This document shows, piece after piece, positions 5,137 through 37,369 of a DNA stretch of 37,369 bases. The stretch comes from an uncultured bacterium (GTDB taxonomy: Bacteria; Electryoneota; AABM5-125-24; Hatepunaeales; Hatepunaeaceae), in contig CAZAGU010000009.1 in assembly GCA_964484805.1 (NCBI GenBank), positions 1 to 37,369 on the forward strand. The letters are read 5' to 3'. The notes under the pieces are model-generated. The model had not been told where the DNA came from and did not search any database. It was given only the letters and a program-made list of their open reading frames with translations. The position numbers were made by a program, and so were the translations under genes. Numbering within the stretch: the first letter of the stretch is position 1; each line of letters opens with the position of its first letter.

Positions 5137-6570
5137 TTATTGTTCTTCAACTTCTTCTGTTACTTCCTTGGTTTTTCCACCAAGTATGTCTTTGCCGGTT
5201 AAAGTCTTTAAAATTACAGGAAGCTGAGCCATTATTTCTGCTGTCATGCCTGTAAGCTTACTCGCACCGGAAGCCCCGTCGCCAACCATTACAATCTTTT
5301 CGATCCTAGACATAGGTTCAGCGATAGATTTGAGCATCTCAGGCGCTTTTTCCAGAGCCATCTGGTAAATAGCCGCTTCATTGTAGTTGGCAAATGATTC
5401 GGCTTTAGCCTGCATAGCTTCTGCTTCAGCGATACCAAGCTTACGGGTGTACTCAACACGGCTGATTCCCTGCTGGCGAGTGACCTCAACCTGAGCTTCG
5501 CCTTCTGCAAGATTGGCTTTCGCACGACCTTCAGCTTCTGTAGTAAGGCGGTATTTCTCAGCATCAGCATCAATTTGAATCTGAATCCGGCGAGCTTCTG
5601 CGGGTTTGTGAATGGTTGATTCGAGTTCTAGCTCACGGCGCAGAATCTCTTTTTCTTCAACCTTAATCGCGGATTCTTTTTCAACCAGCTTAGTGTGATA
5701 CTCGGCTTGCTTTAAATCTGCGTTGACCTTGTTTCTTTCAAGATCATAAGCCAGATCAGACATTGCTTTACGCTTGTTAATATCAATCTGATATTCAGTG
5801 CGCTTGACTTCGTAGTCCTTGTTGGCTTCAGAAATCTGAGTCTCAACCTGGAATCTTACGATGTCCCCTTCTTTGCGAGCTTCGGCTGTTTTGATCGTCG
5901 TGTCGCGTTCTGCTTCAGCCTGTGCAACAGCAGCGTCGCGTTTAACCTGGGCTATTCTGGGAAGACCGAGAGAAGAAATGTAACCTTGCGAATCGGCAAT
6001 ATCCATCAGATTGAAGGAAATTACAACTAAGCCCATCCGACTGAAATCACCAGCGGCTTCTTTTCGCACCTTCTGAGCGAAAACATCGCGATTCTGATAG
6101 ATTTCCTCAACTGTCATTGATCCGATGATATTGCGAACAAAACCTTCGAGAATATGCTCGGTTACCTCTTTAATGGCGCTTGCGCCACCACTAAGGAATT
6201 GTTCAGCAGCACGCATGATGGAAATCTCATCCGACGCAACTTTAACCTGTGCGGCAGCTTCTGCAACGATGTGAACACCTTGTTTTGTTAAAACTTCGGG
6301 TGTTTTTACAGGAATAGTGTAAGTCTCAAGTGAAAGTTCTTGAGTGGATTCGATGAATGGTTTGACGAATGTACCGCCACCAATTTGCATCCTATATCCA
6401 ATCTTACGCTTCGTTCCATCTGTGTCTTGAACTACTCGTTTTTTACCACCAGAAACGATTAGAACTGTGTTAGGTCCAACCTTTTTGTACTGCTTGGCAA
6501 AGGCGAATATAAACAGCCCACCTATTACGACAACGACACCAATCAAAATCAGAATGGTCGTCAGATCCAT
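5137..6570 (-). CDS. Flotillin-like SPFH/band-7 domain membrane protein.
   Basis: N-terminal TM helix (ILILIGVVVVIGGLFIFAF), then an SPFH core, then a long Ala/Glu-rich coiled-coil (AEAERDTTIKTAEARKEGD...EAEGRAKANLAEGEAQ). This is the typical flotillin architecture. Confidence 0.75.
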   Translation of the reverse strand: MDLTTILILIGVVVVIGGLFIFAFAKQYKKVGPNTVLIVSGGKKRVVQDTDGTKRKIGYRMQIGGGTFVKPFIESTQELSLETYTIPVKTPEVLTKQGVHIVAEAAAQVKVASDEISIMRAAEQFLSGGASAIKEVTEHILEGFVRNIIGSMTVEEIYQNRDVFAQKVRKEAAGDFSRMGLVVISFNLMDIADSQGYISSLGLPRIAQVKRDAAVAQAEAERDTTIKTAEARKEGDIVRFQVETQISEANKDYEVKRTEYQIDINKRKAMSDLAYDLERNKVNADLKQAEYHTKLVEKESAIKVEEKEILRRELELESTIHKPAEARRIQIQIDADAEKYRLTTEAEGRAKANLAEGEAQVEVTRQQGISRVEYTRKLGIAEAEAMQAKAESFANYNEAAIYQMALEKAPEMLKSIAEPMSRIEKIVMVGDGASGASKLTGMTAEIMAQLPVILKTLTGKDILGGKTKEVTEEVEEQ

Positions 6571-30173: not shown

Positions 30174-31609
30174 TGCAGATATTATTAGTTGACGACGATA
30201 ATTTCGCTCGCGAAGCCATAGCAAATTTCCTCGTAACTGCTCTGGATCATCAGATTGTTCAAGCCGAGAACGGCAAGGATGCCTTAGTGCTATTCGAACA
30301 GGAAGAGTTCCCGATTGTCATCACAGATATTAGAATGCCTGGCATGAGTGGACTGGAACTTCTGAAATCCATTAAGTCAACCCCAAAGGGAAGAGCAAGT
30401 TGTGTCGTTTTAGTTACTGGTTTTTCTGATCTTAATTCGGCCGTGTTTGCTTTGCGAGAAGGTGCCTTTGACTATCTCAGCAAACCAATAGATGTAATGG
30501 AACTTGCGGGAGTAATTAATCGCTGGGAAGCGACGAATTTGAAAATCCATGATGACTCCTTCAATGTAGCTAAAACCATCAAGAAGTCTGTTCATAGCTC
30601 TCTGGCAGATTTTAAACTAGAGAACAGCGTTTTTCGAGAGGTATCTGGAGTAGGAAAAGTGGGGCTGTTTTCAGATGCTTTAAAAACGGCAGTAATTCTG
30701 GCTCTGAGGTTTCATGACGACAGAAATGTTCCTGTTCTGATCGAGGGTGAAACTGGCACCGGTAAGGAGGTGCTTGCCAGAGTTGTTCATCAGGGCAATA
30801 TGACAGAACCACCGCCATTTATTTCGGTGAACTGTTCTGCACTCTCGCCGTCGCTGATTGAAAGCGAGTTGTTTGGATATGAGAGCGGATCATTTACAGG
30901 TGCCAATAGCAAGGGCTCGAAAGGTAAACTGGAACTTGCTCAAGGGAGTACACTTTTCCTCGATGAAATTGGTGAAATGCCAATGGAGCTACAGCCAAAG
31001 TTGCTGCGAGCTTTACAGGAACGAGAGATATATCGAATTGGCGGTCAGAAACCGATCAAACTTGATGTGCGGTTTATTGCTGCCACAAACCGCGATCTGC
31101 TCAAATGTACTCAGGATGGGACATTCAGGAAAGACCTCTACTATCGCTTGAATTTGGGACGGATTTACCTGCCACCACTCAGGGAACAACGCGAGTCAAT
31201 CGTGCCATTGGCACATCTATATTTGATCCAGTTTTCTGCTGAAAAGAAGAGACGTTTCCGCTTTATTGAGAAAGAGGCTATGCGAACTCTGGAAGAGTAC
31301 GACTGGCCAGGTAATGTTCGTGAATTGAGAAATACAATTGAAAGAATCACTGTGTTTTACGATGAGTTTGAGCTTCGGGCTGAGCATCTGGATTTTCTTG
31401 GGCAGTTAGACCAGCCTGCGCCTAAGGATTCCGGTAGCGTTCTCAAGCTCGGTCAGATAGTTTTACCGCCTGATAAACTTAATCTGCAAGATGTCGAGAA
31501 CGAGATTGTTACCAAGGCGATGGAAATGTTCAGCAACAATCAGACCCGTGCCGCAGAATATCTTGGTCTGTCCCGCCATGCACTGCGAACAAGACTTAAT
31601 CGAAACTGA
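30173..31609 (+). CDS. pilR: Sigma-54-dependent response regulator of the NtrC/PilR family (REC, AAA+ sigma-54 activator, HTH).
   Basis: MQILLVDDD...DIRMPGMSGLELL...DYLSKP (receiver). GETGTGKE (Walker A). ESELFGYESGSFTGA (GAFTGA sigma-54 contact motif). GTLFLDEIGEMP (Walker B). C-terminal HTH (TRAAEYLGLSRHALRTRL). Confidence 0.85.
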   Translation: MQILLVDDDNFAREAIANFLVTALDHQIVQAENGKDALVLFEQEEFPIVITDIRMPGMSGLELLKSIKSTPKGRASCVVLVTGFSDLNSAVFALREGAFDYLSKPIDVMELAGVINRWEATNLKIHDDSFNVAKTIKKSVHSSLADFKLENSVFREVSGVGKVGLFSDALKTAVILALRFHDDRNVPVLIEGETGTGKEVLARVVHQGNMTEPPPFISVNCSALSPSLIESELFGYESGSFTGANSKGSKGKLELAQGSTLFLDEIGEMPMELQPKLLRALQEREIYRIGGQKPIKLDVRFIAATNRDLLKCTQDGTFRKDLYYRLNLGRIYLPPLREQRESIVPLAHLYLIQFSAEKKRRFRFIEKEAMRTLEEYDWPGNVRELRNTIERITVFYDEFELRAEHLDFLGQLDQPAPKDSGSVLKLGQIVLPPDKLNLQDVENEIVTKAMEMFSNNQTRAAEYLGLSRHALRTRLNRN

Positions 31610-31645
31610 GCATTTTAAGGTTAGATTTCACACTTTAGAAACGAA

Positions 31646-31683
31646 TCTACCGGCCCAATTCACACACCTGTAACAATTCACAC
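31646..31683 (+). promoter_or_regulatory. Putative enhancer (UAS) for the sigma-54 activator, copy B.
   Basis: TCTACCGGCCCAATTCACACAC-N8-ATTCACAC lies ~220-255 bp upstream of the plus-strand sigma-54 promoter at 31901. It is the reverse complement of copy A and so has the same orientation relative to its promoter. Confidence 0.5.
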
Positions 31684-31900
31684 CCCTTGCTTTGGATTGA
31701 CTTGATTATAAATTGCACTATAATTATTCCTATAAAAATGCCATTGCATAAGTGGCTGTTCTCGCCTGCATTCTAGGACGCAAGAGGACATAAGAACGGA
31801 CTTGCCGGATACTAAACTCAAAACAAACTCCAGACTTCATCCCACTTGTTTCACCTGAATACTAACGCTCAGACAAGACGCATTTGAGAATCTTAACTCT

Positions 31901-31918
31901 CTGGCACAATGGTTGCAA
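31901..31918 (+). promoter_or_regulatory. Sigma-54 (-24/-12) promoter for the receiver / V4R-like / REC-PATAN operon.
   Basis: CTGGCACaatggTTGCAaat is a perfect TGGCAC-N5-TTGCA. It lies ~50 bp upstream of the ATG at 31970. Confidence 0.75.
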
Positions 31919-31969
31919 ATAATTCGGTCAGTCCTTTTCTGCGCCGCAAAGCAACAAGTGAGGTTTCAA

Positions 31970-32377
31970 ATGCGAATTCTACTGATTGACGATCATTCAT
32001 TAGTGCTCAGTAGCATCTCAAATGCGCTTGAACTATTTAACCATCAATGTGATGCCTTTCAAAGCCCCAAAATGGCGCTTGAGATGGTGGATGAAAACCG
32101 CTATGATGTGGCAATAGTTGACTACAGTATGATCGAGATGAATGGTGTGGAGGTTATTAACGTAATCCACGAGAAAGATGCTCAGGTTAAATTGATTTTA
32201 ATGAGTGGGTATGGCGATGTTGCCAGCGAAGTTTTAAGTCAAGGGCAACATGTTCACGCGTTTTTTACCAAACCCCTTAAAATTGTCAATCTTATTGAAA
32301 CGCTTGAACAAATTAATCGGGATAAATACTTTAATTTCGGCGAGCTTAGTTTTCATCATGCTGTGCTTTGTCATTAG
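31970..32377 (+). CDS. Single-domain CheY-like response regulator.
   Basis: MRILLIDDHSLV..., phospho-acceptor Asp in VAIVDYSM, and the conserved Lys in FFTKPL. GTGAGG RBS. The ORF-track start at 31913 is probably too long. Confidence 0.75.
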   Translation: MRILLIDDHSLVLSSISNALELFNHQCDAFQSPKMALEMVDENRYDVAIVDYSMIEMNGVEVINVIHEKDAQVKLILMSGYGDVASEVLSQGQHVHAFFTKPLKIVNLIETLEQINRDKYFNFGELSFHHAVLCH

Positions 32378-32414
32378 TGTTTAGTGAACACAAAAGTATT
32401 AAAGGACTAATCCA

Positions 32415-32963
32415 ATGACATTAGAAATGGAACTTCCACAGCATTTGGATATACAAACCTTCACCGATTATTTAATGAATAATCTGAACAACAGGTCAAA
32501 CCATTACTTTCTTGCGGTTTATACCCAAATTGCTGGTCGCATACCCATGAGTGGCACGGCAAAGATACTGACGGATATTTCCGAAGAAGTCTTTTATTCG
32601 AGTCTGAAAACCTTGATGGAGTCGGATCATGCCAGCACAATTCCCCATCGATTTTACATCGCGGAATTATACTACGCTGCCGTGGGACTCGGGAAGTTAA
32701 AATTCAACCTGGAAAAAAATGAAGGCATATTATCTCACTCGATGCTCGATAACGCTTGGATAAGATTATTCAGCACTTCAACAACGCCGATCAACTTTGT
32801 AACATCGGGCTATATAGCGGCGACTTTTGGACTCGTTTTTGGGAAACCACTGCATAGCTACCGGGTTTCTGAGAAAAAAAGTATTGCCTGTGGTGAATCA
32901 TTTTCGATTTTCAAGATTCAACGAGCGGAAGATGTGATTAAAACCCTCTTGTCTGTGAACTGA
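32415..32963 (+). CDS. Hypothetical protein with a C-terminal V4R-like (4-vinyl reductase / hydrocarbon-binding) domain.
   Basis: The C-terminal region SGYIAATFGLVFGKPLHSYRVSEKKSIACGESFSIFKI resembles the V4R consensus (G...G......E.kC...G...C.F.I), with the second Cys replaced by Ser. The assignment is tentative. Confidence 0.4.
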   Translation: MTLEMELPQHLDIQTFTDYLMNNLNNRSNHYFLAVYTQIAGRIPMSGTAKILTDISEEVFYSSLKTLMESDHASTIPHRFYIAELYYAAVGLGKLKFNLEKNEGILSHSMLDNAWIRLFSTSTTPINFVTSGYIAATFGLVFGKPLHSYRVSEKKSIACGESFSIFKIQRAEDVIKTLLSVN

Positions 32964-33018
32964 TCGTGGATTATCAGGTCAACCTGATTAGGATCAAAAC
33001 GTCAATGGGAAGATTATT

Positions 33019-34899
33019 ATGAAAGAAGGAAACGTGTCAGAGCAAATTGTTGAGCAAAAACAGCCCATAGAAAATGAGCAGACTGCTTCGGCAAATTCAT
33101 CGTCCCAAAGTTTGCTGGATGACGATGGTACAGGACTGCCAAAGGTTCTGATTGTCAATCAACTCAGACCAATTACAGATATGGTGCGCAACTTCTGCCA
33201 GCAATATAGCGAGGAATTCTCTCTCGTTGCTTCAAATCGTCCCGATGGCATTTTGACCACCCTGGAAGAACATCAGGACGTAAAACTGATCGTTACGGAC
33301 TATCGGTTACTGGCTGAGCAGGGTGTGGATATTATAGATCAGGTCAGAGAGGTTTATCCATACATTCATTTCATTTTAATGCCGGGGCATGAGACAGAGG
33401 AGTGTGTTGAAAAAGTAGATGGATTGGGCTTTGTGCGTTCGTTGACTGCGCCATTCGGAATGCCGGAACTTGTTCGCACAATCAGAGAGATACTCCCTTT
33501 GACCGTCAGCCTCACCGACGTTTTAAATCTTGCAATGGCGAGTGGTGGCGGGACTTTGATAAAAATTTCTTGCTCAGAGGGATCGGGTGAAATTGAATTC
33601 GCAAATGGAGAAATCGTACACGCTGAAGTGGGTGAATTAACCGGCGCTGAAGGCTTTTTCAAAATAGCCAGTTGGCAGAATATCGAATTTGATCTTTGCG
33701 ATCCACCCAAGAAACGGGAGCGCACGATCTACCACTCGTTGGATCAACTCTGGGCGGAAGCTTCTCAGAGACGGAACCAGATTGCCGATGAAACAAGCTC
33801 AACACACCGAATCATTTCAGATGAGACCTGCCGATCTGATGCCCATGTTCTTGACGATACAATATCTACTAAAAGGGAAGCTGGAGATTTTAACAAGCCG
33901 TTGCCGACCGGCATGAATGAGGCAATAAATAATTTTGCTGGTTTTACTACGGGTTTTAGCGAAGAATTGCCTGAATCACTTCCTGCTGAGCCGCGACATT
34001 CGACTGGTTCTCCCTGGGACAACCTTTTCATCGAGGACATTGCCAAGCCTTTTGATGTTGAAGACATTCTCTCTGAGGAAGGAACGCTTTTCACAAATGA
34101 AATGCCTGTTTTTGGTGAGCTTGGAATAGAAGACCTCAACGCTGAATCCTGCGTAAATTATTATCAGGATATATTTCCTGCTGGAATAGATGTCTTGAAC
34201 ATCGAAGAGTTACCTTTGCAAAATCTAGAGCCGTTGCTGAAGCGGCATTTAGTTTGCAAACTTCAGTGGAGTGCAAGCTCAATAGTTCATACGGAGAATG
34301 CCCCGTTTAGCCTCGAAAATCCGAGAATTGCCGCGGCGGTTTCAAACTTACAAAATGCTGTGTTTCGGTATTGGCGGTTATCGCGAAGTGATTTCACTGA
34401 GTTGCTCTGGGAAGCGGCTATTTTTCACCTCGCGCGCTCGCTGAATCCTTGCGGAACGGTGGCTGAATACCTGCATAATCACTGTGAAGGCAAGCTAAAC
34501 CGCATGAAGGATTTTCTCAGCATGATGCTGATCCGACAGGTGCTGGAGTCTGAATATCAACCACTTTATCAGATTATATCCGGCTACGAGTCAAAAACAT
34601 ACAGCCGCGCCAGTATTCCAGCCAGCAAGATATCTGAGCAATTCCGCAATTATTTCTCCGAGAATGTCGATGATATTCTGAGCATCGAAATGCCGCTGGC
34701 AATTAAACGCATTCTGGAAATAAACGCCATTGGGAACGACAATCCGCCTCAGTCTATTCAGCAACATATTTTGATCGAAATGCTTCAGAAGCGAGGGCTT
34801 TGGGATGCGGCAGATTACATCCGACAGGTGTTGCCCGAGCCTGACGCTGGGGTCAGTCTGCCAGTTTATCATCAGCTGTTGAGGAATTTTATCCTTTAA
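33019..34899 (+). CDS. Multidomain regulator: atypical receiver, a DUF4388/PATAN domain, and a ~330-aa acidic C-terminal region of unknown function.
   Basis: REC-like region (VLIVNQLRP...KLIVTDYRL, with the conserved Lys replaced in SLTAPF). It is followed by LTDVLNLAMASGGGTLIKISCSEGSGEIEFANGEIVHAEVGELTGAEGFFKIASWQNIEFDL, which matches the DUF4388 pattern (G.L.......GEI.F..G.IVHA...G..G..A......W..G.F.F). Confidence 0.6.
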   Translation: MKEGNVSEQIVEQKQPIENEQTASANSSSQSLLDDDGTGLPKVLIVNQLRPITDMVRNFCQQYSEEFSLVASNRPDGILTTLEEHQDVKLIVTDYRLLAEQGVDIIDQVREVYPYIHFILMPGHETEECVEKVDGLGFVRSLTAPFGMPELVRTIREILPLTVSLTDVLNLAMASGGGTLIKISCSEGSGEIEFANGEIVHAEVGELTGAEGFFKIASWQNIEFDLCDPPKKRERTIYHSLDQLWAEASQRRNQIADETSSTHRIISDETCRSDAHVLDDTISTKREAGDFNKPLPTGMNEAINNFAGFTTGFSEELPESLPAEPRHSTGSPWDNLFIEDIAKPFDVEDILSEEGTLFTNEMPVFGELGIEDLNAESCVNYYQDIFPAGIDVLNIEELPLQNLEPLLKRHLVCKLQWSASSIVHTENAPFSLENPRIAAAVSNLQNAVFRYWRLSRSDFTELLWEAAIFHLARSLNPCGTVAEYLHNHCEGKLNRMKDFLSMMLIRQVLESEYQPLYQIISGYESKTYSRASIPASKISEQFRNYFSENVDDILSIEMPLAIKRILEINAIGNDNPPQSIQQHILIEMLQKRGLWDAADYIRQVLPEPDAGVSLPVYHQLLRNFIL

Positions 34900-34915
34900 C
34901 ATTCTCTGGAAAAAG

Positions 34916-34940
34916 AAACGGGGACGTTGCCGCCCCCGTT
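34916..34940. terminator. Bidirectional intrinsic terminator between convergent genes.
   Basis: AAACGGGG-acgttgccg-CCCCGTTT is flanked by an A-run on the left and TTTGTGGTTTT on the right. Confidence 0.6.
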
Positions 34941-34979
34941 TGTGGTTTTAAACCTGCCTCATCAGTTGCTGATTAACTC

Positions 34980-35327
34980 TTAATGTGCCCGGATTACAAC
35001 GGCAATCTCATCCCAATCTTCACTGTTTTTAACTCCCAATCCATCGGAAACTTTCAAGCGCACTGTGTATGTTCCCGGTGTGATGTAGCTATGGTATGCT
35101 TGCTGACCAATGGCTGTGGACTTATCGCCGAAATCCCAGAAGTAGGTGAGAGGGTCACCATCGGAATCGCTTGACCCACCAGCATTGAAGTAAATCATGT
35201 CGTGAGCACCACCGAAGAATCCTTCCTGATTACCGCCGGCATTGGCAACTGGAGCCGCATTGATGCGAACGATACAATCATCTGAGGCTGAAGCGGTGAG
35301 CGTTCCAGAATCATCACGAACTGTCAA
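34980..35327 (-). CDS. PKD-domain protein fragment. The 5' end is uncertain and it is probably a truncated remnant.
   Basis: AAPVANAGGNQ...GGSSDSDGDPLTYFWDFGDKSTAIGQQAYHSYITPGTYTVRLKVSDGLG is a complete PKD repeat including the WDFGDG-type motif. The ORF has no ATG. The track starts it at TTG 35327. The reading frame stays open antisense through the dehydrogenase N-terminus. Confidence 0.4.
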   Translation of the reverse strand: MTVRDDSGTLTASASDDCIVRINAAPVANAGGNQEGFFGGAHDMIYFNAGGSSDSDGDPLTYFWDFGDKSTAIGQQAYHSYITPGTYTVRLKVSDGLGVKNSEDWDEIAVVIRAH

Positions 35328-35338
35328 CGATACTAAAA

Positions 35339-35672
35339 ATGTGCCGCCGCGAGTGTGTCGTCGGGGTTGTTGGAATGGGCTATGTAGGATTGCCGCTCGC
35401 GCTGGAGTATGCAGAAAAAGGCTTTTCTGTGCTTGGATTTGATATAGATGTGAAAAAAGTCGGAGCGCTCAATTCCGGCGAAACCTACATCAAGCATATC
35501 CCGAAGCACGCAATAAAAGCCGCTGTCGATAGTGGAAAGCTCGTGGCGACGACGGACTTGCAATGGACTTCAGGGTGTGATGCAATACTAATCGCTGTGC
35601 CAACGCCACTGCCTTCACACACTACGCCTGCACCCAAATTCATGGATGCAGGACGCAGAGCGATAGGCCCAG
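35339..35672 (+). pseudogene. Nucleotide-sugar dehydrogenase (UDP-glucose/GDP-mannose dehydrogenase family) N-terminal fragment, interrupted after about 110 aa.
   Basis: VVGVVGMGYVGLPLALEYAEKGFSVLGFDIDVKKVGALNSGETYIKHI...ILIAVPTPL...AIGPGL matches the NAD-binding Rossmann N-domain of the TviB/WbpA/Ugd family (GxGYVGLPLA, VPTP). Similarity stops at ~35672, where the TTTTTACA repeat tract begins. The rest of ORF 35339..36055 is read-through with no similarity. Confidence 0.6.
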
Positions 35673-35675
35673 GGC

Positions 35676-35708
35676 TTACATTTTTACATTTTTACACGGT
35701 TTTTTACA
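35676..35708. repeat. Tandem TTTTTACA repeats (about 4 copies) at the dehydrogenase/insert junction.
   Basis: cTTACATTTTTACATTTTTACAcggTTTTTTACAct. It overlaps the stop codon of the minus-strand 62-aa gene. Confidence 0.6.
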
Positions 35709-35892
35709 CTCTTGCTTTAACTTCATCAAGGAGTACTTCGCAATGTGCCTTTATGTTTGAAGAGTTGGAATGCAAGCCAGCAAGGTATTTATACCCTTCG
35801 GAACCTTCGTCTAAGCTACACATCATGGCATTTACCTCGTCATCAAGCTTTTTAAGCTCTCCAACGATATATTCTAAAAAATCTTTGTCCAT
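35704..35892 (-). CDS. Small hypothetical protein (62 aa) downstream of the PrimPol-like gene.
   Basis: MMDKDFLEYIVGELKKLDDEVNAMMCSLDEGSEGYKYLAGLHSNSSNIKAHCEVLLDEVKARV. AAGGA lies upstream of the ATG. It starts 5 bp after the PrimPol stop. The ORF-track version 35704..36063 is extended upstream into the PrimPol gene. Confidence 0.45.
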   Translation of the reverse strand: MDKDFLEYIVGELKKLDDEVNAMMCSLDEGSEGYKYLAGLHSNSSNIKAHCEVLLDEVKARV

Positions 35893-35896
35893 CATT

Positions 35897-36958
35897 TTAA
35901 TCCTGTCCTTTAACATACTGAACACCAGCTTTGGCATACAAGAACCTAAGAGCACTGTTACGATTAAAACCCCTAAAAGCAACAAGATAGTCCCAAGGCA
36001 AGTACATGGATCCATCTCTGAAAGCATAAACAGTTCCACGGACCCTGCCAAGTGACTGAGCACCGTTCCAAACTCTCATACTGGGATGAAGATCACCCGT
36101 TTCACTTCTAAGATCTTTGCAGTTAACCCATAGTTTACTGTCTGAGTACGCAACTAAACGATCTCCGTAAATCCACCGAGGGTCAACTTTTTCAAGAGCA
36201 TTTTTAATGCTATAATAAGTCCCTTGGTTCAATTTGTCGCAATTTGTAAGAAATTGATTGTTGCTGTCGCCATTTTTTTCTTTAGGAATTTGAGAGTCTA
36301 ATTCCTGACAAGCTCTAAGAAAATCTCCTGCATGGTTGCAGGCAATGAAATTAGGATCGCTGAATTTCTCAATGATCTGCTCTTTTTTCTGATAGCTAAG
36401 AGTATGACAGAAGGGATACCACAAATTCCCTCCGAAATCCCTAGCTGACAATGGGAAGTTGTCAATAGAAACACCAGAGCAAAGCGACTTCGAAGCAGTG
36501 ATGAGCAAAGAAATTGGAACGACACGATCCAATAGAATATAAATGTGAATTCCCTTTCCGGTGTCCGAGGGCAACTCCATGAACTTTATCTTTGCCTTGT
36601 TTGCAAACATGACGAAGGCTTCATAAGCATTTCTGTTGAAATCATCTTTGTGATCATCAAAGTCGAGACAGACAAACCTAAACAAACCATGTGCTTCATT
36701 GAGATACCGCCCGACTTTAATTTCAGCGTTGCGCATTTTACCGCCAACGCTAGAGACCATATCACAGCGAGTGCCTAAAACATGGTATCTCAGATAATCA
36801 AGTGGATTTCCTTCAACTCTGAGATGCACCAAAGATCCATCTCGTTTGAAAATCCTCACTGGGAATGTATCTCTGCGAATTGTTGTCATCTCACAGAACT
36901 CCCCGAAATTATTATAAGCTTGCGCTTTAGCAGTTTTACCTTTAAAAATTACAGTCAT
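35897..36958 (-). CDS. Primase-polymerase (archaeo-eukaryotic primase superfamily, PrimPol/LigD-Pol-like) protein. Likely the replication-initiation protein of an integrated element.
   Basis: Three AEP motifs with canonical spacing: motif I FVCLDFDDH (hhhDhD), motif II ELPSDTGKGIHIYILLD (sGxGxHxY, as in SGSKGLHLYVPL of LigD-Pol), motif III SGVSIDNF (hD). No similarity in the C-terminal ~180 aa. It is preceded by a (GAAAGGAA)x3 leader and iteron-like repeats. Confidence 0.55.
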   Translation of the reverse strand: MTVIFKGKTAKAQAYNNFGEFCEMTTIRRDTFPVRIFKRDGSLVHLRVEGNPLDYLRYHVLGTRCDMVSSVGGKMRNAEIKVGRYLNEAHGLFRFVCLDFDDHKDDFNRNAYEAFVMFANKAKIKFMELPSDTGKGIHIYILLDRVVPISLLITASKSLCSGVSIDNFPLSARDFGGNLWYPFCHTLSYQKKEQIIEKFSDPNFIACNHAGDFLRACQELDSQIPKEKNGDSNNQFLTNCDKLNQGTYYSIKNALEKVDPRWIYGDRLVAYSDSKLWVNCKDLRSETGDLHPSMRVWNGAQSLGRVRGTVYAFRDGSMYLPWDYLVAFRGFNRNSALRFLYAKAGVQYVKGQD

Positions 36959-36964
36959 TCTATT

Positions 36965-36988
36965 TTCCTTTCTTCCTTTCTTCCTTTC
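36965..36988. repeat. (TTCCTTTC)x3 perfect tandem repeat, which reads (GAAAGGAA)x3 on the coding strand. It sits immediately 5' of the PrimPol-like start codon.
   Basis: tattTTCCTTTCTTCCTTTCTTCCTTTCttttacccc. On the minus strand this places three AAGGAA Shine-Dalgarno-like motifs within 35 nt of the ATG. Confidence 0.7.
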
Positions 36989-37005
36989 TTTTACCCCTGC
37001 GCACG

Positions 37006-37061
37006 CCCGTAAGAAGTTAAGCGTGGGTTATTCAGCTAGTATAATATATTACTCTTACGGG
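37006..37061. repeat. Imperfect inverted repeat (arms CCCGTAAGA / TCTTACGGG) enclosing an AT-rich core that contains TATAAT.
   Basis: gcacgCCCGTAAGAagttaagcgtgggttattcagctagTATAATatattacTCTTACGGGcgagcacgc. The position between the iteron-like repeats and the primase gene is origin/promoter-like. Confidence 0.5.
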
Positions 37062-37086
37062 CGAGCACGCGGGTACTGTTAACGTC

Positions 37087-37369
37087 ACTACTCGTTCCCA
37101 CGCTCCTGCGTGGGAATGCTATGTTTCTCCTGATTGCAGTTTCCCTAATCTGTTAAATCCGTTCAATCTGTTGTGAATTATAGACTAGGGATGAATGCGA
37201 TGGATACCTGCCTTCGCAGGTATGACAGCGGCGGGTACAGCTGGCGCGCGCGGTGATTTGGGGGCGTTACTACTCGTTCCCACGCTCCTGCGTGGGAATG
37301 CTATGTTTCTCCTGATTGCAGTTTCCCTAATCTGTTAAATCCGTTCAATCTGTTGTGAATTATAGACTA
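37087..37369. repeat. Long tandem direct repeats: an identical 101-bp unit at 37087-37187 and 37269-37369 with 182-bp periodicity. The array is cut by the window end.
   Basis: ACTACTCGTTCCCACGCTCCTGCGTGGGAATGCTATGTTTCTCCTGATTGCAGTTTCCCTAATCTGTTAAATCCGTTCAATCTGTTGTGAATTATAGACTA occurs twice exactly. Each unit contains the perfect hairpin TTCCCACGC-tcct-GCGTGGGAA and the sub-repeats AATCTGTT x2. The 81-bp spacer contains the palindrome ATACCTGCCTTCGCAGGTAT. Confidence 0.8.

Follow-up and report, generated by a model that had tools for sequence, protein, structure and literature searches.

The window analysed here is an entire contig of 37,369 nt (CAZAGU010000009.1) from an uncultured bacterium of the Hatepunaeaceae, and its subject is a compact cassette at the right-hand end, in which a minus-strand gene for a 353-aa primase-polymerase is followed by a short acidic open reading frame (ORF). 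The gene is bracketed by an array of hexamers that overlaps the operon's stop codon and by longer direct repeats upstream, two copies of which are visible before they reach the edge of the contig (Table 1). To the left the cassette abuts pieces of broken genes, while the rest of the contig is chromosomal and carries hrcA-grpE-dnaJ, a type IV pilus/secretion-type cluster and two-component regulators. The features listed in the original prediction, made from the letters of the sequence alone, are all present, and none is expected by chance; the relevant features extend further left than had been supposed, to ~35330.

Table 1. Features of the cassette and its left flank, with the stop-codon arrays of the two related loci (window coordinates unless a locus or residue range is given; REP, repetitive extragenic palindromic; AEP, archaeo-eukaryotic primase; GC3, G+C content at third codon positions)
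Feature	Position	Strand	Details
3' fragment of a PKD-domain gene, N-terminally truncated	34980..35327	-	Pfam PKD_4, 3.9e-24
Inverted 9-mer ACATTTTTA	35334..35342	-	At the breakpoint between PKD and dehydrogenase fragments
Orphan 5' fragment of a UDP-sugar dehydrogenase gene, ~335 nt	35339..35668	+	Pfam PF03721
GTGTAA/TGTAA hexamer array (TTTTTACA tract)	35675..35709	-	12-, 8- and 8-nt spacing
62/63-aa acidic ORF	35704..35895	-	Starts 1-4 nt past the primase stop codon; GC3 0.38
Primase-polymerase gene, helicase-less, 353 aa	35897..36958	-	AEP motifs, profile and fold matches
AEP Prim-Pol domain	~residues 1-225		D99/D101, G136/H138, D166
Low-confidence linker	residues 228-241		
DnaG-type zinc-binding-domain fold	~residues 245-345		First Cys (C280) alone retained
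Purine tract (GAAAGGAA)x3	36965..36990	-	Period 8, 3.2 copies, 100% match
Inverted repeat, 23-nt arms, 38-nt loop	36992..37075	-	Arms 36992-37014 and 37053-37075
AT-rich box GTAATATATTATAC	37039-37052		In the loop of the 23-nt-arm inverted repeat
AT-rich palindrome TAATATATTA	37042-37051		Inside the inverted-repeat loop
Proximal 105-nt direct repeat	37083..37187	-	~65-nt cassette-specific part plus REP hairpin
REP-type hairpin GTTCCCACGC-TCCT-GCGTGGGAAT	37094..37119		Second copy at 37276-37301
Second REP-type hairpin ACCTGCCTTCGCAGGT	37194..37231		In the 77-nt spacer; 38/38 nt match in contig L100
Distal 105-nt direct repeat	37265..37369	-	Ends at the contig end
Stop-codon array, L001	6349-6375		GTGAAC x3
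Stop-codon array, L003	1190-1217		GTGTAC/GTGAAC x3

The identification of the 353-aa protein as a primase-polymerase of the AEP superfamily, proposed in the original prediction, holds. The motifs FVCLDFDD (D99, D101), SDTGKGIHIYILLD (GKGIH, with H138) and SIDN (D166) agree with those that define the superfamily, namely hhhDhD/E for motif I, sxH for motif II and hD/E for motif III (PMC5862659). In a 20-sequence alignment conservation reaches at least 90% at D99, D101 and H138, and motif III has either D or E at its acidic position; the same alignment keeps a C-terminal signature, C-R-D-x2-S-x2-G-D-x2-P-S ... R-G ... F. Judged by its intact motifs, the Prim-Pol domain looks catalytically active. 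Searched as a single sequence, the protein gave AEP-TOTE (PF22548; 21.7 bits, E 1.7e-4) as its sole Pfam match, one weak primase match of 16 bits in PHROGs and nothing useful in the PDB, and a model built by AlphaFold2 without an alignment (pLDDT 35) was of no use; PADLOC and NCBIfam gave no match for the proteins of the window cassette. Those remote relatives of the protein that were scanned, some of which also carry VapE or D5-type helicase domains, reach 46-78 bits with AEP-TOTE, so that its link to PF22548 holds at the profile level only.

A profile (A2) built from the 20-sequence alignment and searched against the PDB found the Prim-Pol domain of the CRISPR-associated primase-polymerase (CAPP) of Marinitoga (7nqd/7nqf) at E 9e-15, matched LigD and non-homologous end-joining polymerases weakly, and reached the zinc-binding domain of Bacillus DnaG (1d0q) at E 0.08. 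Structure comparison gave values of 13.9 for the CAPP Prim-Pol, 10.0 for the DnaG zinc-binding domain, 8.9 for Prim-PolC, 8.5 for LigD-Pol, 8.4 for Aquifex DnaG and 6.6 for RepB', and Foldseek agrees. The protein has the AEP/Prim-Pol catalytic fold, and Pfam shows no match to PriCT or helix-turn-helix (HTH) domains. The C-terminal half had been described as lacking recognisable similarity, which is refuted by its zinc-ribbon fold of the DnaG type; of the CHC2 zinc ligands, a pattern alignment made by eye keeps C280 alone, the other three positions being occupied by L283, A312 and D315. The protein thus combines an AEP primase-polymerase with a domain of the DnaG type that would act as a reader.

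Relatives of similar length are exceedingly scarce, with only two found in about 15 billion proteins. P0002 (341 aa), recovered in a HMMER scan of 1.84 billion representative proteins, is related over its full length at 33% identity (E 7e-47), and P0028 (335 aa), found in a search of 5.8 billion clusters, is 53% identical to P0002. The three short proteins (335-353 aa, 33-53% identity) have intact frames and keep all catalytic residues. The related loci are L001, an 11.5-kb metagenome contig from ENA, and L003, a contig of 4.4 kb from an NCBI metagenome-assembled genome. Between their primase genes the proportion of nonsynonymous differences (pN 0.315) lies well under that of synonymous ones (pS 0.704), and the primase is therefore under purifying selection. 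The base composition of the window cassette is foreign, with a GC3 of 0.38 for the primase gene and the small ORF against 0.43-0.55 in five host genes. Searches by tblastn of 72,556 plasmids and 50,697 phages gave no match, a locus search of IMG/VR found no relative, and a word-index protein search recovered the query itself alone, a profile search there adding little. A cassette in which a helicase-less AEP carries a DnaG-like domain is seen three times in the databases searched.

The remote matches in the 1.84-billion scan, about 25 in number, fall nearly all on the first ~370 residues of proteins of 800-1100 aa. The nearest counterparts are the primase-helicases of integrated mobile elements and phages, which join an AEP and a Zn-binding domain to a VapE/VirE or D5-type helicase and may be compared with the PrimQH and All3500 families (Kazlauskas et al. 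2018). Most of the window protein, at positions 7-335 of the profile built from the short proteins (A1), aligns to the N-terminal ~370 aa of the long enzymes, with common catalytic motifs and a common ribbon signature, CRDxxSxxGDxxPS...RG..F. The best viral matches are likewise phage primase-helicases, and the proposed likeness to replication initiators of mobile elements is supported. The window protein nevertheless differs from them in being only 21-26% identical, in having neither a helicase domain nor a winged-helix tail, and in standing in a ~2-kb cassette without other element genes. It ends past the ribbon domain, the small acidic ORF follows, and no helicase or ATPase of the VapE/VirE, D5, DnaB or DUF927 type is fused or adjacent to the primase in the window, L001 or L003. 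No integrase, cas gene or reverse transcriptase was found by a Pfam scan of the neighbouring ORFs, as had been stated from the sequence, and neither L001 nor L003 holds other mobile-element genes.

The 62/63-aa ORF is probably co-translated with the primase. It has no family match in Pfam, PHROGs, PADLOC or NCBIfam and no counterpart in L001 or L003, and is lineage-specific; its product is identical to that of a 62/63-aa ORF called on an independent contig (L130). As had been noted, the ORF ends in the TTTTTACA tract, its TAA stop codon falling inside the first GTGTAA of a series that reads GTGTAA-N6-GTGTAA-N3-TGTAA-N3-TGTAA. The tract had been taken for an insertion junction, and the reading frame of the dehydrogenase does stop there; since similar hexamer arrays lie at the stop codon, or 5 nt past it, in both relatives, the tract probably also belongs to the element and is more than a mere junction.

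Upstream of the primase gene, the purine tract and the palindromic AT-rich box of the original prediction were both recovered. The purine tract contains a likely ribosome-binding site, AGGAA, ~6-7 nt ahead of the ATG, and the AT-rich box, which may be a promoter, has similar counterparts upstream of the start codon in L001 (~5291-5303) and L003 (~120-133). In the form TAAT-W3-ATATAC it occurs in all three cassettes, roughly 20, 45 and 80 nt before the start codon. Beyond it lie the direct repeats, described earlier as identical, 101 bp long and 182 bp in period: the repeats themselves, their hairpins and sub-repeats, the period and the position at the contig edge all stand, whereas the units are 105 nt long and 99% identical, with a 77-nt spacer. 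Each unit holds a perfect hairpin with a 9-bp stem, for which no shuffle of the window gave two matches, and carries AATCTGTT twice, 18 nt apart. Both the 9-bp stem and the two AATCTGTT copies belong to the ~65 nt per unit that are specific to the cassette.

About a third of each 105-nt repeat is a hairpin repeat of a generic kind. At least 120 metagenome contigs, unrelated to one another, contain the exact 24-mer of this hairpin, in varied contexts and both orientations, often paired and with conserved flanks; the window stretches that match those contigs are ~37085-37125, with its second copy, and 37190-37235 alone, the shared length being 30-40 nt, and the rest of the cassette is unique. 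The spacer hairpin recurs on L100, where it sits beside other hairpin-repeat families. A short, imperfect palindrome dispersed over many intergenic sites in both orientations is what defines REP sequences and bacterial interspersed mosaic elements (BIMEs), and the hairpin parts are host repeats of this REP/BIME type. The three hairpins of the window resemble such repeats, also in having conserved flanks in many unrelated contigs, and REP/BIME material accounts for part of each 182-nt unit, the ~65 nt per unit and the other cassette DNA being unique. A 30-mer from the window repeat is absent from GTDB representative genomes, and an Rfam scan of 34800-37369 (E <= 1) gave no match, so that no known RNA family accounts for the repeats. 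A CRISPR-like array was considered and rejected on the repeat length of 105 nt and the REP content.

The layout of the window recurs in the two related loci, whose cassettes of ~1.8 kb have hexamer arrays at or near the stop codon and longer repeats on the upstream side, with hairpin repeats of the host between them. L001 and L003 have in common a unit of ~27 nt, TGWACTTRTGWACNTNRTGWAYNWAA, made up of three hexamers at 8-9-nt spacing. The unit stands just upstream of the gene, by the AT-rich box, and again at the stop codon (overlapping the TGA in L001) or 5 nt past it; a third copy follows 172 nt (L001) or 173 nt (L003) beyond the stop-codon unit (L001:6349-6547, L003:1190-1390). The DNA between the stop-codon and distal units is unrelated in the two loci, consisting of three tandem 39-nt hairpin repeats in L001 and, in L003, of a different hairpin present as an inverted repeat with 29-nt arms. 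L001 has two further, inverted TGWACTTRTGWACNTNRTGWAYNWAA copies upstream, flanking a (GTAATTC)n run that L003 also has; this heptamer run (L001:4921-4958, L003:1-53) is kept despite a protein identity of 53%, and contigs L002 and L003 both break within it. Between the inverted and the direct 27-nt units of L001, just upstream of the primase, lies a relatively GC-rich segment of 226 nt (L001:5051-5262), whose one 42-aa ORF has no Pfam match. The window parallels these loci in its hexamer (GTGTAA against GTGTAC or GTGAAC), the ~8-nt period, the overlap with the stop codon, the upstream AT-rich box, the longer direct repeats farther upstream and the REP hairpins between units.

On the left, the locus is a scar of broken host genes, more complex than the insertion of a cassette into a dehydrogenase gene. 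The original prediction had the cassette interrupting such a gene, and its frame does stop at the tract; the piece concerned, however, is an orphan 5' fragment fused to a fragment of a PKD-domain gene. The UDPG_MGDP_dh_N match covers residues 8-110 and profile positions 3-108 of 187, ending at ~nt 35668, 8 nt ahead of the tract. An intact dehydrogenase gene disguised by a frameshift was excluded: the plus-strand ORFs scanned hold no further Pfam match to the rest of the enzyme, and it is the primase operon, on the opposite strand, that fills this region. The ORF of the PKD fragment begins in mid-domain and abuts the dehydrogenase fragment within ~12 nt. Copies of ACATTTTTA number three in the 37-kb window, two in the tract (35678 and 35686) and the inverted one at the far breakpoint, so that the dehydrogenase fragment is bracketed by inverted copies of this 9-mer. 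A tRNA attachment site was also rejected, the sole tRNA gene lying at 2477-2549.

Independent contigs bear on whether this arrangement is genuine. L130, from another sample and assembly, crosses the junction between cassette and dehydrogenase fragment at 99.77% identity (2 mismatches in 869 nt), and the junction is therefore not an assembly artefact. L129 is 99.98% identical to window positions 30850-35312 and stops 15-25 nt short of the PKD/dehydrogenase breakpoint, which may reflect a branch in its assembly graph or a junction that is polymorphic in its sample.

The reading that we tentatively favour, while giving it slightly less than an even chance, is that of a compact foreign cassette of ~1.7-2 kb that derives from a mobile element and acts as a reduced, origin-like module for priming, in which an initiator primase goes together with its cognate arrays. 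Its one conserved gene encodes a primase-polymerase that would have lost the helicase of its relatives, and the module would be what remains, in priming function, of the primase-helicases by which integrated mobile elements, phages and satellites are replicated. The gene is bracketed by the cassette's own repeats, with arrays of RTGWAM hexamers, ~8 nt apart, that start at the operon's stop codon and longer direct repeats upstream, and host REP hairpins have settled between the repeat units. The primase is proposed to be a sequence-specific initiator: the DnaG-like domain may read the hexamer arrays, the AEP domain would then make a primer at them, and host enzymes would extend it; repeat binding, priming and the ensuing replication, like the function and mobility of the cassette and its mode of arrival, are what we infer.

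Bacterial AEPs are almost always found in integrated mobile elements, and helicase-less AEP initiators such as the Rep protein of ColE2 are known (PMC5862659). ColE2-P9 Rep, an initiator of the AEP family that is helicase-less like the window protein (PMC5862659), offers the functional analogy proposed here. The two differ in that ColE2 Rep has PriCT-1 and HTH domains after the AEP and resides on an autonomous plasmid, whereas the window protein has a DnaG-like ribbon in their place and no sequence match among the plasmids searched. With ~300-350 aa, ColE2 Rep acts alone at a short cognate site, and the ColE2 origin lies just downstream of rep. RepB' of RSF1010, with its ssiA/ssiB sites, is a further analogy for a primase acting at cognate sites, although the hairpins in the window are generic host REPs; the second domain of RepB' is a helix bundle, unlike that of the window protein, and RSF1010 also encodes the helicase RepA and the initiator RepC. 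The ribbon itself is of the CHC2 kind found in the zinc-binding domain of DnaG and T7-type primases, here attached to an AEP instead of a TOPRIM catalytic domain. An iteron-type theta origin consists of several tandem initiator-binding repeats of ~17-22 bp by an AT-rich region and a rep gene. The short arrays with a period of 8-9 nt and the AT-rich box exist in the window, as do two visible 105-nt repeats at the 182-nt period, but these repeats, which had been proposed as iteron-like, seem not to be iterons in the plasmid sense, their hairpin part and most of the spacer being generic REP-type sequence.

Several points weigh against an origin-like module. The long repeat is visible in two copies only, and generic REP material makes up much of its 182-nt period. 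Genes for a helicase, an initiator, partition or integration are absent, and it is not obvious what a replicon would do within a chromosome. The non-coding DNA of the window shares no alignable sequence with L001 or L003; what the window tract and the relatives' arrays have in common is their position, their periodicity and a similar hexamer (5 of 6 nt matching). The AEP-TOTE score of the single sequence also lies under the curated gathering threshold of 27 bits.

If priming at the arrays proves true, the cassette would be among the smallest origin-plus-initiator units known, and would offer a simple system for studying start-site choice by a primase that carries a DnaG-like reader domain. The usual bacterial AEP primase is part of a primase-helicase encoded by a prophage, a plasmid or a conjugative element, but the present priming module occurs on its own and is under selection in three distant uncultivated bacteria, with its own arrays and with neither helicase nor integrase. 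The accumulation of host REP hairpins between foreign repeat units could mean that the DNA is often single-stranded there.

The main rival, which we consider unlikely, would make the cassette a small mobile unit similar to an insertion sequence (IS), whose repeat units would be the ends at which DNA is cut and joined and whose primase-polymerase would be either cargo, moved by an enzyme with its gene at another place, or the mobility enzyme itself. In L001 the outermost units pair as an inverted repeat of 27 nt with 96% complementarity (24 nt perfect), and the 1.6 kb between them enclose a single gene. A 5' gene fragment without the rest of its gene borders two of the three cassettes, namely the dehydrogenase here and, on the left side of L001, cydA (profile positions 1-96 of 418), the right neighbour of L001 being essentially complete. 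Such one-sided truncations are the pattern left by adjacent deletions of mobile elements; the tract 9-mer, which turns up in inverted orientation precisely where the dehydrogenase fragment breaks off on its other side, points the same way, as does the absence of an integrase. Yet of the features that mark an IS or transposon, terminal inverted repeats show in L001 alone, the one locus with both ends visible, and neither a target-site duplication nor a transposase was seen. Units also stand at the promoter and inside the cassette, and no contig holds a second copy. TGWACTTRTGWACNTNRTGWAYNWAA itself has four single-copy matches in GTDB representative genomes, consistent with chance, and none in IMG/VR. 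To our knowledge, AEP enzymes have never been shown to cut or join DNA. Were the repeats recombination ends after all, they would point to an undescribed route of DNA mobility.

Somewhat less likely again is a decaying leftover of a larger integrated element (prophage, satellite or conjugative element) that has lost its helicase part and is no longer functional. The relatives are primase-helicases, bacterial AEPs nearly always belong to integrated elements (PMC5862659), the locus is rich in gene fragments, and only 411 nt of upstream sequence separate the gene from the contig end, beyond which further element genes could follow. Decay is hard to reconcile, however, with three proteins at 33-53% identity that keep frame, length and catalytic residues with pN well under pS, or with a repeat layout conserved between L001 and L003. 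L001, moreover, has ordinary cellular-type genes on both sides within ~2 kb and no other element gene; as a ~1.8-kb unit between host-type genes, it means that a large element extending far beyond 37369 is not required.

It is improbable, in our view, that the cassette represents a new kind of mobile element, with the primase-polymerase as its sole protein and inverted short-repeat arrays as its bounds, that copies or moves itself by priming at its ends. Such an element would leave adjacent deletions and pick up fragments of host genes, which would include the dehydrogenase piece between inverted ACATTTTTA copies and the 226-nt segment of L001.

A defence or conflict module with the Prim-Pol as effector, on the pattern of TOTE systems or CRISPR-associated Prim-Pols, is suggested by the sole Pfam match and by the nearest solved structure, but we regard it as very unlikely. 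TOTE systems are defined by TPR, OB-fold and TBP genes together with an effector (PMC12458937); the ORFs scanned in the window and beside L001 have no Pfam match to these or to cas and reverse-transcriptase families, and none is apparent in L003. PADLOC is without a match, and the AEP-TOTE family also matches ordinary primase-helicases. The Marinitoga CAPP (PDB 7NQD/7NQF/7P9J) is 15-18% identical to the window protein, its solved fragment is without the DnaG-like domain, and neither a cas gene, a TPR region nor a CRISPR array accompanies the window gene, the sole repeats being the 105-nt units with REP hairpins, unlike CRISPR. That the mosaic is an assembly chimera formed at repeats is a highly improbable reading, even though the sequence comes from a draft assembly, a repeat forms the end of the contig, no intergenic DNA separates the fragments and L129 stops where it does, because L130 spans the junction between cassette and dehydrogenase fragment and no long repeat lies at either breakpoint.

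Some further observations touch on the repeats and the ribbon domain. The first 340 nt of another contig (L087:1-340; Ga0172375_10063927) contain three tandem 106-nt units that combine the REP hairpin of the window with the octamers CACTTGTA CACTTGCC CACTTGAA CACTTGTA. These units adjoin a tRNA gene, with no primase gene, and their octamers hold TGTAC and TGAAC, a likeness to the L001 and L003 units that may be coincidental. In P0004 (2357 aa) nine separate stretches match the ribbon segment of the query (residues 279-321), so that this protein seems to contain many copies of the DnaG-like ribbon. P0026 is a stand-alone AEP and ribbon relative of 403 aa at a contig end (locus L128:1-9389), and its neighbours, genes for an SNF2-type helicase and an Eco57I-like restriction enzyme, form a context typical of mobile or defence islands.

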